Source of the DNA: a virus | Lineage: Duplodnaviria > Heunggongvirae > Uroviricota > Caudoviricetes | Length of the DNA: 50,095 nt | IMG/VR virus record: IMGVR_UViG_646564533_000009 | Strand: one strand, 5' to 3' | Shown: one piece after another, positions 1 to 16,592 of the stretch | Layout of the letters: each line of letters opens with the position of its first letter | Numbering within the stretch: position 1 is the stretch's first letter | The notes under the pieces: model-generated | Database searches by the model: none | Seen by the model: the letters and a program-made list of their open reading frames with translations, nothing else | Told to the model about the DNA's origin: nothing | Translations under genes and position numbers: made by a program

Positions 1-1284
1 TCAGTGTGGTACATGGATATCGATACCACGGCTAAGTATAAATCTGGTGTTACTACCGTGAAAGACTCGGTACGACTGGATCCGTGGGTGTTTATGTTCT
101 CCGCAGGATATCGTTTTTAATTTTCTCTGCAAAACCTCTGCAAAACTGGTCATCAAATGACCAGTTTTTTTCCATTCCTTACCGCGTGCGTCGTTGTAAA
201 TATCGGTCATTTTTTGATTCGAATGGCCTAGCAAAATTTTGGTATCAACCCCCTGCTCTCTGAACAATCGCTCTGATAAAGATCTCTGCTCATGGAAAGA
301 GGGTGGGGTGCCATTAGCACGCCAGTTGTAATCCACAGAATCCCGGGCTTTTTTAAATGCAACGGTTAATGTTGCTGGCTTAACCATCCCGCCGCGCTTA
401 GCTGTCCCTTTCGCGTGATGGTGGTGCAATAGCCACGGACTAAGAACGCAATCGCGGCAGGATGACACCACATCATCTAGGGTGAGATTTAATTTATCGC
501 AACGCAGAGCCAGAGGGATGGCAATCCGGGTTCCTGTTTTTTGCTGTTCGACATGACGATAACCATCCCGGATATCCGAAAATTGCATTTTGCAAATATC
601 TGAAAGGCGCTGGCCTGTCATCAGTGCCAGCAGCATACCGCGCTGTAAAAAGTAACCATCCTTTTCCGCTGCGTTATAAATCATCATCCACTCATCAAAA
701 GTCAGTCGCTGTCTTGATATCCGCACCTGCGGTTTTTTTGCAGATTCTGCAGGGTTAAAGCCTGGCGGGACATCGCCCGTTTGCTGAGCTTCCCGGAAAA
801 CATCGATCAGTACTTTCCTGAAAATTTGTCCCATTCTGTTATGTCCTCTGGCCTTGTACTCTTCCAGTACTGATACCACATCTTTTACGGTTATGGCATC
901 TAACGGTCTGGTGCCAAAACGTTCATCAAATACCCTGAGAGGGGCCGCTTTCTGTTTCAGCGTGTTGAGTTTGATCTCGCCGTTTTCATATCTTTCCTGT
1001 TGAATTTTTCTGTAATTATTCAGAAAAATGGTAACGGTTGATGAACCGCCGGTATCACTAATAATTTTCTCCTGCAGACTGAGCATTTGTTCCATTTGCT
1101 GCCGGGCAAGACGGCTGTTCGCTTCTGCTGCAATAGTTTCTGCCAGTTTCTGGTCAATACTGCCGAGACCGTGATTTTTGCCTGTTATGGGATGCCTGTA
1201 ACGCCAGTAAACTTTGTTATTTCTTTTGTCAAAATACGGAGATAATCCCGGAACATCGGTTTTATATTTTCGCGGGCGCGCCAT
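1..1284 (-). CDS. int: Phage integrase (tyrosine recombinase)
   Basis: 427-aa ORF whose stop is at the window edge; terminal position in the prophage next to an excisionase-like gene; integrase-like sequence (recalled family resemblance). Confidence 0.85.
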   Translation of the reverse strand: MARPRKYKTDVPGLSPYFDKRNNKVYWRYRHPITGKNHGLGSIDQKLAETIAAEANSRLARQQMEQMLSLQEKIISDTGGSSTVTIFLNNYRKIQQERYENGEIKLNTLKQKAAPLRVFDERFGTRPLDAITVKDVVSVLEEYKARGHNRMGQIFRKVLIDVFREAQQTGDVPPGFNPAESAKKPQVRISRQRLTFDEWMMIYNAAEKDGYFLQRGMLLALMTGQRLSDICKMQFSDIRDGYRHVEQQKTGTRIAIPLALRCDKLNLTLDDVVSSCRDCVLSPWLLHHHHAKGTAKRGGMVKPATLTVAFKKARDSVDYNWRANGTPPSFHEQRSLSERLFREQGVDTKILLGHSNQKMTDIYNDARGKEWKKTGHLMTSFAEVLQRKLKTISCGEHKHPRIQSYRVFHGSNTRFILSRGIDIHVPH

Positions 1285-1510
1285 CTTCCAGTATCCTCTT
1301 CAAAGCAGGGTGATCTGTGGCGATCACCTCCGGCTTGTTTACCATTCCGACAAAGCGAGCTTGCGGATCCACTCGCCAGCGTCTTCCAACTTTTTTGGGG
1401 AGAGGAAATATCATTCCGGCTTTAGCGTATTTACTTAACGTACTCGGAGTAGGGACCGGTTCACTGAATTCCTCTTTTGCCCACTCAGTGAGCAGAATAA
1501 GTCTTGCCAT
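1262..1510 (-). CDS. xis: Excisionase-like DNA-binding protein
   Basis: 82-aa ORF immediately upstream of int and overlapping its start; small basic protein (MARLILLTEWAKEEF...KKVGRRWRV) typical of lambdoid Xis. Confidence 0.7.
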   Translation of the reverse strand: MARLILLTEWAKEEFSEPVPTPSTLSKYAKAGMIFPLPKKVGRRWRVDPQARFVGMVNKPEVIATDHPALKRILEDGAPAKI

Positions 1511-1574: not shown

Positions 1575-4025
1575 TTAAAAATCAGCCTGATTCGGGAGCA
1601 GTTTTTGCCAGATAGTTGAAACGTATTTTGCCTGGTAACGGGCATCATCCAGCGCATTGTGGCGCTCACCTTCGAATGGGATAGCAGTTCTGGCATCGAA
1701 GTCTACGGCTTTCCCCAGCTCAACGATTGTGCGTACATCGCGATCGTTGCAGTAGCGCCACGGGCAGGGGATACCCTGTCGTTCGTATGAACGGCGCAAA
1801 ATAGTGTTGTCGAAGTTGGCCCCATTACCCCAGACCTGAACAAAAAACTCACCGGAGTTTTCGTCGATAAATTCCCGCAATTGCAGTAGTGCATCATCTA
1901 ACGGGATTTCATCGGTCATAATGGCAGACTGCGCTTCACGTGATTGCTTCAGCCACCATTTAATGACGTCACGATCAATGACTCCGCCAGCAGTATCCAG
2001 ATCGATGGTCTTGCTAAATTCTGGTCCCATATCTCCGGTTTGCGGATCGAAAAATATTGCGCCTATTGAGATAATCGGGGCATCGGGATTTTTTCCCATG
2101 GTTTCAAGGTCGATCATCAGATGAATCCCCGCTCTGCTGGTGGATGTGAGATTATGATGACTGTTCGCCTTAATTAAGGGATCTGACGCCTCGCCAGTTT
2201 CACTATCGCTGGCATGATGCTGATTGCCGCCAGTGTTCTCCTTGTGCTGATGTGCAGTACCTTCCATTTCCTCCGGATCATTTTCCTGAACTTCAGGCTG
2301 ATTCTCTTCATCGAATATTTCCTGGTATGTTGCGTCGCCCATCACCGCGCCACAATCAGGGCAGTTGCCGCCGCCGGTCTGACCGCAGGCGGTGCAGACT
2401 TTTTCCACTTCCTGTTGCGCCACTGGTTCAGGCTGTTTCGTTTCTGGCTCGTTTTGTAACGCATTTGGGCTGTTCTGTTCCGTTTCTTGCTGGTTCTGGT
2501 TCACAGAATCGCGGGTTTCAATCCCCTTCACCCATTTCGGATCATTCGGGTCGCTAATCCCTGCAACAAATTCACCACGTGATGCGGCGAGCAACTGATT
2601 GGCGTCAGGCTGGCTGATATTGGCTGCCTGCATAATTTTCTTTACTTCGTCAGCGGTAACTTTTACCGGTTCTGGTTGTTCAGAATTTTGTGCGGTATTT
2701 GCATTTTGCGGTAAGCCTGTGTATGTGCCATTTTTTCGGGCAAAATATTCTTCTTTTGTGATTTCAGTAGCCCCGGCAGCCAGCGCCTTATCCAGACCAG
2801 AAAGTTTGTTTGCGCGACCGTATTTTTCGCAATCCTTGTCGGTGAAGAGGAAGTAGAACGGCCCCTCACGCTCTACAGATGGTTCGACTTCCACTTTGCA
2901 TTCGGTTTTTTCGTTGTCCGGAATTGCCGTTTCCACTGCATCAGTTTCTGGTACTGGCGACGAGAGAGTGTCAGTTGCGCTCTGATTTGTTCCTTCATCT
3001 TCAAACACGCCCTTTGTAGTCAGGTATTCAGTAATGTATTTGTTCAGTGCCACAGGGTCTTTGTGAATGTCGATCGGACGTTCACGGACAAGGCCAAAAA
3101 TAGTCTGGCGGTCGTAGCGAAGGGCATCAGGCTGTTTGCGCATTGATGCCGAGATACGCTTCCAGTCTTCGCGGTCGTTGTCGATAACTTCATTTTTTGC
3201 CCAGCGATGGATGCTGCCGTCAATGTTTCCGGCATCCACATCACCAGGCCAGAGAGCGTAGGCCAGTTCGTCATCCAGTGTTTTCCATGTCTGCTTATAT
3301 TCGCGACGAATGACTGCAGTGACAGGGGGGATTTTTTCTGCTGAGTTTTCAGTGTGCTGTCGGTGGACTCTGGCGCGGGCGAGATCAACAACAGACGTGT
3401 ATTTTCCGGTTTCCTTGCGTTCACCTTCGCGACGTTTTTTCCAGATGCGCATTTCTGCCTGAATTTCGGGCCATTTGGCACCAGGCTTACATTTATGCTT
3501 AACCCACCCGATGGCATGCAGCTTAAGCTCCGGATACATGGCGTTAACTTCTGGCATTTTCATCAACGCTTCAACGATATGTCCGTCGAATGTTGCCATG
3601 TCTTCCTGCAACAATTCCTGCGCGCTAATCACCATATCAACGGTGATGTTTTCACATGTGTCGAACTTAACCATGACAGCGTTCTGTACTTCAGGGGCCA
3701 GCTTGTCAAAAGCGACGTTCATCGGATCTGATTCAGTCTCAACCGGGACAAAGGAAGCAGCCCCCTCATCCCAGCGGTTTTCCTGCATATATTCAGCATC
3801 CCAGGAATCGAGGGCAGGGCGGGGTATACCGGGTTTATCCTCGCAAACAAGAAATTTATAAGCGCAGTCCTGAGCAGCCGGATAATGCTCCAGGAATTGC
3901 CAGTGAAATTTTGCGCGGGCGCGACGTTCATCACCGGCTTCAATGGCAGTGGCTACAGCGACTGCACCTTCTTCCTTTATTGCCTGTTCGTCCGGAATGG
4001 CGGCGCAAATAAAGACTTTACTCAT
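1575..4025 (-). CDS. Exonuclease-family protein (YdfE / exodeoxyribonuclease VIII-like) with internal zinc ribbon and C-terminal DEDDh 3'-5' exonuclease domain
   Basis: 816-aa ORF; C-terminus carries DEDDh-type motifs (MIDLETMG, WGNGANFDNTIL, HNALDDARYQ); CxxC...CxxC pair (CTACGQTGGGNCPDCG); sits in the lambda exo/recombination position between dicB-ydfD and xis-int. Confidence 0.75.
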   Translation of the reverse strand: MSKVFICAAIPDEQAIKEEGAVAVATAIEAGDERRARAKFHWQFLEHYPAAQDCAYKFLVCEDKPGIPRPALDSWDAEYMQENRWDEGAASFVPVETESDPMNVAFDKLAPEVQNAVMVKFDTCENITVDMVISAQELLQEDMATFDGHIVEALMKMPEVNAMYPELKLHAIGWVKHKCKPGAKWPEIQAEMRIWKKRREGERKETGKYTSVVDLARARVHRQHTENSAEKIPPVTAVIRREYKQTWKTLDDELAYALWPGDVDAGNIDGSIHRWAKNEVIDNDREDWKRISASMRKQPDALRYDRQTIFGLVRERPIDIHKDPVALNKYITEYLTTKGVFEDEGTNQSATDTLSSPVPETDAVETAIPDNEKTECKVEVEPSVEREGPFYFLFTDKDCEKYGRANKLSGLDKALAAGATEITKEEYFARKNGTYTGLPQNANTAQNSEQPEPVKVTADEVKKIMQAANISQPDANQLLAASRGEFVAGISDPNDPKWVKGIETRDSVNQNQQETEQNSPNALQNEPETKQPEPVAQQEVEKVCTACGQTGGGNCPDCGAVMGDATYQEIFDEENQPEVQENDPEEMEGTAHQHKENTGGNQHHASDSETGEASDPLIKANSHHNLTSTSRAGIHLMIDLETMGKNPDAPIISIGAIFFDPQTGDMGPEFSKTIDLDTAGGVIDRDVIKWWLKQSREAQSAIMTDEIPLDDALLQLREFIDENSGEFFVQVWGNGANFDNTILRRSYERQGIPCPWRYCNDRDVRTIVELGKAVDFDARTAIPFEGERHNALDDARYQAKYVSTIWQKLLPNQADF

Positions 4026-4117
4026 TTTGTTTTACCTCATTACAGATTTAAGGGTGAACAAATCCCTGCCATTGCTGGCATATAAGAATGAAATCGGATG
4101 TTTATTACGGAACTGTT

Positions 4118-4309
4118 TTAAAGACCTGCCGGGATTTCGTTATTATCCTGGTGAATAACTTTATCGACCGGGTAACAGTTACCGGGAATTTTCTGTTCGG
4201 TTGCTGCAGTCACACACTCCTGCATTGTCCTGTGAACACTGACTGCAATATCAACTGGCTCTCCGGAAACAAGAAAAACTGTCAGAACAAGTGCAAATGC
4301 TGTATTCAT
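4118..4309 (-). CDS. ydfD: YdfD-like small membrane protein (DUF1482-type)
   Basis: 63-aa reading MNTAFALVLTVFLVSGEPVD...; overlaps the dicB stop by 4 nt; matches the Qin prophage dicB-ydfD arrangement (from memory). Confidence 0.65.
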   Translation of the reverse strand: MNTAFALVLTVFLVSGEPVDIAVSVHRTMQECVTAATEQKIPGNCYPVDKVIHQDNNEIPAGL

Positions 4310-4494
4310 TGCCAGCATCCTTTTTGTATCGGACGTAAACGGGCCAGCATTGAAAGAATGCATATTTTATTTAATAACTCCCGTTCGTGTTTTCTCTTGT
4401 TAATGGCATCTTCAGTAAATACAGGGTTACTGATAGTGACACCAATTTCAAAACAACCTTCAGACGTATTAACGTTTGGTAATAACGTTTCCAT
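4306..4494 (-). CDS. dicB: Cell division inhibitor DicB
   Basis: 62-aa METLLPNVNTSEGCFEIGVTISNPVFTEDAINKRK...KGCWQ, near-identical to recalled DicB; lies immediately downstream of a DicF-like sequence. Confidence 0.85.
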   Translation of the reverse strand: METLLPNVNTSEGCFEIGVTISNPVFTEDAINKRKHERELLNKICILSMLARLRPIQKGCWQ

Positions 4495-4663: not shown

Positions 4664-4719
4664 AAAAAGGGCGGACATCAGTTCATGGGCAAACAGATGC
4701 CGCCAAACGTCACCAGAAA
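4664..4719 (-). ncRNA. dicF: DicF-like small RNA
   Basis: Minus-strand sequence UUUCUGGUGACGUUUGGCGG...CCGCCC followed by a U-run, matching the recalled DicF seed and terminator; positioned upstream of dicB as in Qin. Confidence 0.6.
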
Positions 4720-10888: not shown

Positions 10889-11647
10889 ATGAGGAACATA
10901 ATGGCAGGTTTTTTAATATTCCTGTCTTCTGCTGCTTATGCTGATATCAATCTGTATGGTCCTGGTGGCCCGCATACAGCCTTGCTTGATGCAGCCAAAC
11001 TTTATGCCGAAAAAACAGGTATTATAGTGAACGTTCATTACGGCCCACAGAACAAATGGAATGAAGATGCCAAAAAAAATGCAGATATCTTGTTTGGCGC
11101 ATCAGAACAATCTGCTCTGGCTATCATTCGGGACCATAAAGACAGCTTCAGTGAAAAAGATATTCAGCCTCTTTATCTGCGAAAAAGTATTTTACTGGTA
11201 AAGAAAGGTAATCCTAAAAATATCCGGAGTATTGACGACCTGACCAGACCTGGGATTGGCGTAATTGTTAATGATGGTGGTGGTACCAGTAATACATCAG
11301 GCACTGGCGTCTGGGAAGATATTGCCGGACGTAAAGGGAATATAGAAACTGTCGCCGCAATCCGAAAAAATATTATTTTATATGCGCCCAATAGCGGAAC
11401 TGCACGTAAGGCTCTTGAGAATCAGCCTGGAGCAGATGTCTGGATAACCTGGGCTGACTGGGCAGCCAGTAATCCAGAAATTGGTGATGTCGTGGAAATA
11501 GCGCCAGACTACGTGATATGGCGTGATATGAACATTACAGTACGTCAGGATGCAAATGATGAAACCCGTCGATTTGCAGAATGGCTACAAACCGATGAAG
11601 CGGCGCCTGCATTCAAAAAATATGGCTGGACCAGGAAAGGCACTTGA
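10889..11647 (+). CDS. Secreted periplasmic substrate-binding-like protein (ModA/PBP-fold family)
   Basis: 252-aa ORF with a signal peptide (MRNIMAGFLIFLSSAAYA|D); architecture and C-terminus resemble molybdate/anion-binding periplasmic proteins; low-GC context with its own AT-rich upstream region. Confidence 0.7.
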   Translation: MRNIMAGFLIFLSSAAYADINLYGPGGPHTALLDAAKLYAEKTGIIVNVHYGPQNKWNEDAKKNADILFGASEQSALAIIRDHKDSFSEKDIQPLYLRKSILLVKKGNPKNIRSIDDLTRPGIGVIVNDGGGTSNTSGTGVWEDIAGRKGNIETVAAIRKNIILYAPNSGTARKALENQPGADVWITWADWAASNPEIGDVVEIAPDYVIWRDMNITVRQDANDETRRFAEWLQTDEAAPAFKKYGWTRKGT

Positions 11648-11883
11648 CATCCTCGTCCTTCAGGACGTGGATTCTTTTTCCGGATGCCGCGCCAGCGGCA
11701 TGTAGGGGCAGCTCACAAAACGGAAAAAATTGTACGCTAAGCCTCGCCAGGTGAACTGAATTCATTCCGATATGGGAATTCCCATATCGGGCGAAAACGG
11801 TTTGCTGTAACGGCAGAGTTAAGTAGGATTGCTGCGGGTGCTTGAGGCTATCTGCCTCGGGCATGAACACCAACGGCAGATAG

Positions 11884-11935
11884 ATAAAAGCCCCACCCGA
11901 CTATAAATCGAAGTGAGGCCCCTATATGCTCGTCA
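11884..11935 (-). ncRNA. sok: Predicted Sok-like antisense RNA
   Basis: Minus strand has a TTGACC -35-like element (plus 11964-11969) and a hairpin GCCUCAC…GUGGGGC followed by a U-run (ending near 11884), antisense to the mok/hok leader. Confidence 0.4.
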
Positions 11936-12138
11936 CATATAGATTGCCTCTTACGGACCGAAAGGTCAAGGAGAAGCAGGCTATGAAGCAGCAAAAGGCG
12001 ATGTTAATCGCCCTGATCGTCATCTGTTTAACCGTCATAGTGACGGCACTGGTAACGAGGAAAGACCTCTGCGAGGTACGAATCCGAACCGGCCAGACGG
12101 AGGTCGCTGTCTTCACAGCTTACGAACCTGAGGAGTAA
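11926..12138 (+). CDS. mok: Mok (in-frame N-terminal extension frame over hok)
   Basis: 70-codon frame sharing its stop with hok, as in chromosomal hok/mok loci. Confidence 0.6.
   Translation: MLVTYRLPLTDRKVKEKQAMKQQKAMLIALIVICLTVIVTALVTRKDLCEVRIRTGQTEVAVFTAYEPEE
11983..12138 (+). CDS. hok: Hok/Gef-family type I toxin
   Basis: 51-aa MKQQKAMLIALIVICLTVIVTALVTRKDLCEVRIRTGQTEVAVFTAYEPEE, very close to recalled Hok/Gef sequences. Confidence 0.9.
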   Translation: MKQQKAMLIALIVICLTVIVTALVTRKDLCEVRIRTGQTEVAVFTAYEPEE

Positions 12139-15269: not shown

Positions 15270-15345
15270 GGCCCTTTAGCTCAGTGGTGAGAGCGAGCGA
15301 CTCATAATCGCCAGGTCGCTGGTTCAAATCCAGCAAGGGCCACCA
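15270..15345 (+). tRNA. ileZ: tRNA with CAU anticodon (ileZ-type tRNA-Ile2 / Met-like)
   Basis: Manual cloverleaf: acceptor ggccctt/aagggcc, anticodon loop cuCAUaa, T-loop ttcaaat, encoded CCA. Confidence 0.8.
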
Positions 15346-15346
15346 A

Positions 15347-15422
15347 CCGCCACTAGCCATCAGGAAAGAGCGTCAACCCTTTAAGTTGAGTGTGCGAGGT
15401 TCGAGTCCCCGGTGGTGGTCCA
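15347..15422 (+). tRNA. tRNA-like gene with atypical anticodon loop (argN position)
   Basis: Standard spacing: acceptor ccgccac/gtggtgg, U8A9, perfect anticodon stem tcaac/gttga, T-loop ttcgagt, encoded CCA. D-stem is weak and the anticodon loop reads ccuuuaa (C33; anticodon UUU by position), so identity is uncertain. Confidence 0.5.
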
Positions 15423-15435
15423 TTATCGGTATTCT

Positions 15436-15509
15436 GCGTTGTTAGCTCAGCAGGACAGAGCAATTGCCTTCTAAGCAATCGGTCACTGGTTCGACTCCAG
15501 TACAACGCG
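15436..15509 (+). tRNA. argO: tRNA-Arg (UCU anticodon)
   Basis: Manual cloverleaf: acceptor gcgttgt/acaacgc, D-arm gctc…gagc, anticodon loop cuUCUaa, T-loop ttcgact. Confidence 0.8.
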
Positions 15510-16113: not shown

Positions 16114-16592
16114 ACGGTAAAACTGCGCCTGACTGTGGCTGCACTCCTGCTGTTTCTGGTGGTGATGGTGGATTTCACCAGCAGAATCATGTCGGTGCTG
16201 GCGGATGGGGGGCTGGTCTGCGGCATTATGGTATTGCTGTGGCCGGTGATAAAAAGAAACAGCCTGCATAATGCTTGATTTTTTTGTTTGCTGTTTATTA
16301 AAAACACTTCTGCATGGTGAATCCCCCTGTGCGGTGGGGCAATCAGCAAGAAGGAATATGGGGTAATCGCGGATTCAGGTGCTGATACTGAATTCACCGG
16401 GAGGCACCCGGCACCATGCTTTGCCACAAAAGTGTTATTTCTGTTTTTCTCAAACTATCATCGTTATCCCTTTATTTTCGGCTGCGCATGGCGCGGCCTT
16501 TTTTTTACGACCAGCCACTGGCAGATGGTCATCCTGTGATTTGATTCCGCTTCCGGCTTTTTAACTCTGTTCCTCTACACGGGAGAAATTCG

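Follow-up and report, generated by a model that had tools for sequence, protein, structure and literature searches.

A predicted DEDDh exonuclease head on a RecE-related scaffold in the early-left operon of an Escherichia coli lambdoid prophage

This work deals with a single prophage gene, located on the minus strand at 1575..4025 of the IMG/VR virus record IMGVR_UViG_646564533_000009 (Caudoviricetes), a stretch of 50,095 nucleotides which is called the window in the following. The window represents an Escherichia coli lambdoid prophage integrated at ompW, with its first 7 kb being 95.6% identical to the PPompW prophages, and the gene is an open reading frame (ORF) with an ATG start that codes for a protein of 816 amino acids (aa). 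As judged from its amino acid sequence, this protein is a relative of the RecE family whose C-terminal catalytic head has been exchanged, a DEDDh domain taking the place of the PD-(D/E)XK nuclease. The best explanation for the gene appears to be that of a recombination-module 3'-5' DNA exonuclease mounted on a RecE-type scaffold and relying on host recombination, to which we assign a probability of about 0.5; the identity part of this explanation is near certain, and its functional part represents the weaker half.

An earlier note on the same DNA, made without database searches, had described a large protein with a C-terminal DEDDh exonuclease domain and a zinc ribbon in a long acidic linker, which stands in the exo position without a recT/bet partner. 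This observation is confirmed here, and the interpretation attached to it is partly supported.

Results

Domain layout of the 816-aa protein

The assignment of the head is based on Pfam family PF16473 (Rv2179c-like 3'-5' exoribonuclease domain), which matches aa 635-806 with E=2.1e-65 and 220 bits against a gathering score of 27 and is covered over profile positions 2-177 of 177. All five catalytic residues (D639, E641, D739, H789, D794) are present, and they are invariant in comparison to T4 DexA, an EcD-like protein (see below) and four family members, so the head may be classed as a predicted DEDDh 3'-5' exonuclease. Neither a PD-(D/E)XK nor a lambda-Exo domain was detected by Pfam analysis of the protein or by tblastn searches of the window with both RecE nuclease domains, which agrees with the earlier claim that the gene does not code for a lambda Exo or RecE-type 5'-3' nuclease. 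In particular, the protein gave no Pfam match to the PF12684/DUF3799 nuclease domain, which Rac and Gifsy-2 RecE do match, and none at E<=1 to the Exonuc_VIII N-terminal domain PF06630. The PHROG family phrog_2082 ('exonuclease') covers the protein over its full length, and the gene is 100% identical to a copy in NZ_CP015241 (strain 2013C-4465). Its features, all on the minus strand, are as follows.

1575..4025, minus strand: whole gene, predicted RecE-scaffold/DEDDh exonuclease (PGAP WP_000048548.1, named 'exonuclease')
4035..4038, minus strand: Shine-Dalgarno sequence GAGG, 9 nt 5' of the ATG, as read from the sequence
3621..4025, minus strand: N-terminal module (aa 1-135) of the 'qN' type, where Rac RecE has a PF06630 N-terminus instead
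2991..3620, minus strand: 'Mid' helical module (aa 136-345), common to all long relatives including Gifsy and Rac RecE
2871..2990, minus strand: acidic disordered linker (aa 346-385), pLDDT <50, net charge -8 to -9
2721..2870, minus strand: small conserved beta-hairpin/helix domain (aa 386-435; GPFYF...GRANK...EITKEEY), pLDDT 77-87
2406..2720, minus strand: linker (aa 436-540), from aa 473 close to Rac RecE 453-591 (BLASTP against K-12 RecE)
2352..2396, minus strand: zinc ribbon CTAC-x7-CPDC (aa 544-558), C544-x2-C547 ... C555-x2-C558, also found in Rac RecE
2136..2351, minus strand: acidic tail that closes the linker (aa 559-630), with a net charge between -8 and -11 per 40 aa
1608..2123, minus strand: predicted DEDDh 3'-5' exonuclease head (aa 635-806), Pfam PF16473

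The zinc ribbon is surrounded by a strongly acidic stretch, in which 40 aa carry a net charge between -7 and -11, and thus lies in an acidic linker as had been described. The first 135 aa are an alpha/beta N-terminal module of the non-catalytic scaffold, and the Mid module is helical in the predicted model, with aa 205-238 forming a disordered basic insert. The small domain at aa 386-435 contains many invariant alignment columns and accompanies all three types of heads introduced below.

A RecE-type scaffold with interchangeable heads

The N-terminal part of the protein, for which the earlier note had proposed a domain search, shows a homology to the non-nuclease part of RecE proteins which that note had not seen and which extends over aa ~136-620. 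In a BLASTP comparison with K-12 Rac RecE, aa 262-618 correspond to positions 278-591 of the latter (E=2e-59), and a stretch including the zinc ribbon and the acidic tail (aa 473-618) is ~80% identical to Rac RecE 453-591. The NCBIfam model PRK09709 (exodeoxyribonuclease VIII) is matched by aa 452-619 alone, with 277 bits against a cut-off of 1269, and aa 136-533 align with Gifsy-2 RecE 177-534. The N-terminal 345 aa match the N-terminal regions of Gifsy-1/2 and SPN3UB RecE (24.5% identity over 91% of the query), as well as gp07 of the Pectobacterium phage ZF40 and a protein of a Stenotrophomonas phage.

A HMMER search with aa 1-630 among 1.84 billion representatives yielded 250 relatives at E<=1e-3, and 149 retrieved representatives were scored against modules cut from the query and four reference proteins. 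The Mid module is present in every long relative of this set, and it pairs in nearly every combination with two types of N-termini (qN and the PF06630 type, RacN) and three heads, namely the DEDDh head, the PD-(D/E)XK head of RecE (Rac or Gifsy subtype) and a head of ~300 aa typified by ZF40 gp07; relatives combining RacN with a DEDDh head are included. The third head gave no Pfam match at the default threshold, while PF04098 matches six of eight members and the Foldseek matches are named Rad52, Erf or SSAP, and it looks like a Rad52-like annealase. Scaffold proteins with this head are found at L005:3998-6163 (ZF40 gp07) and L006:3974-6106 (BUCT708), in P0128, P0133 and P0274, and in others, and they probably correspond to the 'RecE-2' proteins of a recent survey (PMC12315714). 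The zinc ribbon is an optional element of the scaffold, as it occurs in 140 of 142 qN+DEDDh, 42 of 101 RacN+DEDDh and 37 of 59 RacN+PD-(D/E)XK proteins, and in none of the four Rad52-head proteins.

The earlier view of an exonuclease in the exo position therefore holds with respect to position and head, but not in its implication of an enzyme unrelated to RecE, since the protein appears as a RecE-family scaffold with an exchanged head and the ribbon-containing linker is itself a feature of RecE.

Head type and neighbouring genes

A set of 332 loci (L007-L338) from genome and viral contig collections was searched for RecT (two types), lambda Bet, Exo, Gam and Gp157, with the scaffold gene being classifiable in about 313 of them. 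RecT is present in 59 of the 60 loci with a PD-(D/E)XK head, directly downstream where inspected, and Sipho_Gp157 directly follows the gene in three of four loci with a Rad52-like head, likewise in the phages ZF40 and BUCT708. None of the 249 DEDDh loci, which represent 214 distinct proteins with both N-terminus types and extend to ~50% identity, contains RecT, Bet, Exo, Gam or Gp157. A gene from one of three excisionase-like clusters comes next in ~235 of 250 DEDDh loci, at a median distance of 53-73 bp, and is followed by an integrase gene, and this partner-less arrangement does not vary between the N-terminus types or among several genera. Loci with a DEDDh head thus lack a partner systematically, and the prophage studied here is no exceptional case. 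The strict coupling between the head and the neighbouring gene, the head-swap series and the Rad52-like third head were not found stated in the literature searched.

More speculatively, the scaffold might represent a general recombination platform with interchangeable heads (5'-3' nuclease, 3'-5' nuclease or Rad52-like annealase), each of which would dictate the partner retained (RecT, none or Gp157, respectively). The DEDDh form might then act as a self-sufficient, annealase-independent device for end processing, which either channels phage ends into host RecBCD/RecA or shields them. We regard this proposal as possible rather than probable; if it were true, the 'RecE-2' proteins would be scaffolded annealases.

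Prevalence and selection

Of 5426 complete E. coli genomes, 3532 contain the gene at >=80% coverage; the median number of places in a genome is 2 and the maximum 10. With about two thirds of the complete genomes containing it, often in several copies, it ranks among the commonest E. coli prophage genes. PGAP names the E. coli copies 'exonuclease' or '3'-5' exonuclease', and some alleles '3'-5' exoribonuclease'.

Ratios of nonsynonymous to synonymous substitution rates (dN/dS) were determined pairwise against seven alleles, module by module. In most comparisons, three modules (the N-terminal one, the small domain at aa 386-435 and the DEDDh head) gave values of 0.04-0.2. The small domain is among the lowest of all modules (0.04-0.16), and the head covers a total range of 0.09-0.38. 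The acidic linkers overall yielded about 0.5-1: the linker at aa 346-385 mostly gave 0.3-1.2, apart from two comparisons near zero in which the region had barely diverged, and the acidic tail at aa 559-630 gave 0.36-0.95. The folded modules are therefore under purifying selection, and together with the recurrence of the gene in the E. coli genomes, this argues against a chance ORF. Within one allele pair, dS varies up to about 20-fold among the modules (gene at 1575-4025 against L027, L007, L055 and others), as exemplified by the L027 allele with values of 0.05 in the N-terminal and Mid modules and 0.9 in the head. Such differences would be expected from an exchange of modules by recombination, and they point to breakpoints in the acidic linkers.

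Operon context

The early-left operon of the prophage is of the Qin type, with the order dicA-like repressor, ydfC, DicF variant, dicB, DUF1482/ydfD, exonuclease gene, xis and int. The neighbours of the exonuclease gene are as follows.

1262..1510, minus strand: excisionase gene directly downstream, after a gap of 65 bp behind the exonuclease stop codon, with int coming next
4118..4309, minus strand: DUF1482 (ydfD-like) gene directly upstream (Pfam, PGAP)
4306-4494: dicB, upstream of the DUF1482 gene (PGAP annotation)
4669-4718, minus strand: variant of the DicF small RNA, upstream of dicB as in Qin (Rfam, 43.5 bits against a gathering score of 48, E=5e-8)

Consensus scans for a promoter or terminator of the exonuclease gene's own were no richer than those of shuffled sequences. 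No annealing-protein gene was found in the window by the PGAP annotation of the identical NZ_CP015241 region, by Pfam analysis of the early-left ORFs or by tblastn with RecT (two types), lambda Bet, Gam, Gp157 and the Rad52-like head as queries. A recT/bet/erf-type gene overlooked by the earlier note can thus be rejected, and of the two findings which that note had named as refuting, a canonical PD-(D/E)XK nuclease and a missed recT-like gene, neither turned up. Genes for a single-strand-binding protein (SSB) or a non-Gam anti-RecBCD protein are likewise absent from the window, as judged from the PGAP annotation of NZ_CP015241 alone.

The window contains three top-strand and one bottom-strand Chi sites, a total of four which is reached by 21 of 100 shuffles and hence not above chance. 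Two of the four sites, at 1547-1554 and 2136-2143 on the plus strand and hence opposite to the gene, are found shortly behind the exonuclease gene and at its 3' end, respectively, and a Chi site is also found within the homologous exonuclease gene of phage Tritos (L366:27079).

Two identical copies of a 1260-bp element are present in inverted orientation at 24219-25478 (plus strand) and 42515-43774 (minus strand), each carrying an ORF of 348 aa and a full-score Rfam match to isrC (24288-24410 and 43583-43705). They probably represent insertion sequences (IS) of the IS3 family (ISEc31-like), one of them among the head genes, and the prophage may therefore be defective. The early-right region (10889-11647, 11836-11985, 15270-15509, 16283-16455) contains an adhesin gene (Paa, of the AcfC family), a hok/sok locus that scores 104 bits with Rfam sok, two tRNA genes, which the sister record gives as Ile and Arg, and a match to the STnc100 small RNA.

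Discussion

Proposed function in phage recombination

If the protein is a recombination enzyme, it would be made from the early-left operon of an induced or infecting lambdoid phage, and its head would act on DNA by trimming or degrading 3' single-stranded tails, 3' ends at double-strand breaks or phage DNA ends, an activity of the kind described for T4 DexA. The scaffold would provide the head with the same targeting or assembly function that it provides for RecE. No annealase would be kept because a head of this type is not a 5'-3' resection nuclease and should not produce the 3' tails on which an annealase is loaded, and the phage would have to recombine by means of host RecBCD/RecA or with annealases supplied by co-resident prophages. 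Among the roles left open by the earlier note (recombination, anti-defence, and host DNA or RNA processing), recombination or DNA-end processing is favoured for two reasons: the sister scaffolds carry either a 5'-3' nuclease or a Rad52-like annealase, and a standalone head of some 55% identity is part of an erf-ssb-exo-abc2 module. Anti-defence, considered here as anti-phage defence, and RNA processing are possible roles with less support.

The closest standalone homologues of the head are gene 29 of Salmonella phage g341c (54.5% identity) and gp26 of mEp460 (58.8% identity). The former is packed between ssb and abc2 within the canonical recombination module mentioned above, and the latter is located directly upstream of xis, with no annealase nearby.

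Several points weigh against the proposed role. The name-giving member of family PF16473, Rv2179c, is an RNase. The prophage contains two IS copies and may be defective, and a signature of reliance on RecBCD is absent, as the Chi sites of the window are not enriched. The literature searched contained no biochemical or genetic test of activity, polarity or substrate for the protein or its scaffolded relatives. Finally, 3'-5' DNA exonucleases usually inhibit recombination (PMC12315714), so that a positive role in this process is not obvious.

Relatives of the head and alternative roles

The sole solved relative of the head recognized by sequence is T4 DexA (PDB 8KEL, E=2e-5). An E. coli homologue of DexA, EcD ('HREX'), has been reported by Kang et al. 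(NAR 2025) to degrade 5-hydroxymethylcytosine (5hmC) DNA, to digest T4 DNA and to protect against T4 (PMC12153337). This raises the possibility of a prophage defence nuclease similar to EcD, which degrades the 5hmC-type DNA of superinfecting T-even phages and thereby protects the lysogen. The primers given in the supplement of that study encode MIDTET..., match no scaffolded gene and fit a standalone ORF of 189 aa (forward primer exact, reverse primer one base off, Ala78), which is 37% identical to the DEDDh head (E=9e-36); an identity of EcD with the head of the 816-aa protein was therefore rejected. The EcD-like ORF is found in L346, L356, L359:5679-6269 (minus strand) and L362:6401-6991 (minus strand), in the early region of an apparently P2-like prophage and beside a probable DNA adenine methylase gene, and the reported 'bacterial' defence nuclease thus appears to be prophage-borne itself. 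This relationship, the likewise prophage-borne location and the extreme prevalence of the gene in E. coli, often in multiple copies, would fit a defence function.

The residues reported to determine the substrate point in another direction. W152 and D169 of DexA are necessary for 5hmC DNA, and D90, a tetramer residue needed to attack unmodified DNA, is replaced by Ala in EcD (PMC12153337). The head keeps an Asp (D711) at the position of D90, where the EcD-like protein has A78, and aligns a Cys (PWRYCND) with W152 and Gly/Lys with D169, although these latter positions are uncertain at 25% identity, with a Trp located three residues upstream. On this alignment, the head would seem to lack the features described for a 5hmC-specific enzyme (PMC12153337). 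Moreover, the gene is located at the distal end of a repressed early-left operon without a promoter-like site above chance ahead of it, PADLOC returned only a generic DEDDh match, and the shared scaffold is otherwise tied to recombination enzymes. We therefore consider a defence function unlikely.

The homology to DexA would also be in line with a role in lytic growth analogous to that of DexA at low temperature, namely degradation of host DNA and scavenging of nucleotides without participation in recombination, and the retention, by alignment, of the tetramer residue for attacking unmodified DNA fits this as well (PMC12153337). However, wholesale breakdown of host DNA is not a trait of lambdoid phages, and their own DNA is unmodified, so an untargeted nuclease would also hit the phage ends. 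As neither the RecE scaffold nor the placement of standalone homologues at ssb/abc2 would be explained, this role seems rather improbable.

Only slightly less credit is given to an RNA exonuclease like Rv2179c, which would trim the 3' ends of RNAs, be it those of the host or, for instance, the long transcript of the dicBF-type operon. In Pfam, the head matches an exoribonuclease family best, the DicF variant and dicB share the operon, and the PGAP name of some alleles is in agreement. Against this stand the DNase activities of the closest characterised relatives, the EcD-like protein and DexA (PMC12153337), the location of the closest standalone homologues in DNA recombination modules, and the occurrence of the head in loci lacking dicB and DicF, such as mEp460 and g341c.

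Finally, a decaying remnant, which has lost its recT partner and original nuclease and is turning into a pseudogene in defective prophages, is suggested by the Qin prophage of K-12-type genomes, which keep only the first ~767 nt of the gene beside IS2 (a piece we take to be ydfE), by the frameshifted copy of PPompW_14040 and by the two IS copies of this prophage, but it is hardly credible in view of 214 distinct full-length DEDDh-type proteins, 211 of them with a recognisable motif III (by a crude pattern), the low dN/dS values of the folded modules, the intact genes of the plaque-forming phages Tritos, mEp460_ev081, Evi and HannyBb, and the uniform layout of the partner-less loci.

None of these alternatives explains the shared recombination scaffold as well as a 3'-5' DNA exonuclease working within phage recombination. 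The latter leads to testable questions on the role of a 3'-5' exonuclease in a phage recombination module, on the way in which annealase-less lambdoid phages recombine, and on the function of the N-terminal two thirds of RecE, which boost linear-linear recombineering. The head-swap series, with PD-(D/E)XK, DEDDh and Rad52-like heads on one scaffold, represents a natural experiment in this respect. Caution is advised with the RecE label, as several phage records are annotated as 'exodeoxyribonuclease VIII' although the nuclease domain is absent and the polarity should be opposite.

Comparison with known systems

The RecE proteins of Rac (exonuclease VIII) and Gifsy-1/2 share homologous Mid and linker regions with the 816-aa protein and occupy the same early-left position upstream of xis-int. 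In contrast to them, the 816-aa protein contains neither PD-(D/E)XK nor PF06630 domains, has no recT gene downstream and is expected to act with the opposite (3'-5') polarity. It also does not form part of a SynExo system (5'-3' exonuclease plus annealase), both parts of which are absent from the window as judged by Pfam, PGAP and tblastn. The proteins of the ZF40 gp07/BUCT708 type agree with the 816-aa protein in the N-terminal and Mid modules, at 24-29% identity over aa 3-377, but carry a Rad52-like annealase head instead of a nuclease, with Sipho_Gp157 encoded next to it.

T4 DexA (8KEL/8KEN) and EcD belong to the same DEDDh subfamily as the head and share all catalytic residues. They are standalone proteins of ~190-227 aa, whereas the head is fused to a 630-aa scaffold, and in comparison to DexA it keeps, by alignment, the equivalent of D90 and appears to lack those of W152 and D169. 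The DnaQ-like g341c gene 29 (epsilon34-type) and mEp460 gp26 occupy the exo position or a place in the Rec module within the early-left operon, as does the gene studied here, but they have no scaffold, and the one in g341c has erf, ssb and abc2 as companions, which this gene lacks. Mycobacterium tuberculosis Rv2179c, a standalone cellular 3'-5' exoribonuclease, falls into the same Pfam family as the head, with no closer relationship shown.

The closest known system is found in a survey of 325 lambdoid genomes by Zheng, Casjens, Davidson, Amundsen and Smith (Genome Res 2025; PMC12315714). It describes 'RecE-2' proteins, which are related to RecE, lack a nuclease domain and have unknown roles, with ZF40 being listed as encoding only anti-RecBCD, and a 'Tritos' type of four phages, which have a nuclease and 7-21 top-strand Chi sites but neither an annealing protein (SAP) nor SSB nor anti-RecBCD (Table 1 therein). 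Gp27 of Tritos (823 aa) is 89% identical to the 816-aa protein over the full length, and the window shares its DicF-dicB-ydfD-exo-xis-int arrangement. Tritos is a viable phage with nine top-strand and two bottom-strand Chi sites, compared to three and one in this prophage with its IS insertions; the window thus contains the nuclease-only module of the Tritos type, with the nuclease in the early-left operon and no SAP found, but falls short of at least four top-strand Chi sites. The survey lists the Tritos class without dissecting or testing its protein (PMC12315714). The protein and its partner-less arrangement are covered already by PGAP, PHROGs and Pfam and by the Tritos-type module published in 2025 and are not a new kind of system; because of the identity to Tritos gp27 and the common gene order, the puzzle raised by the earlier note, an exonuclease in the exo position without an annealing partner, corresponds to a published class (PMC12315714).

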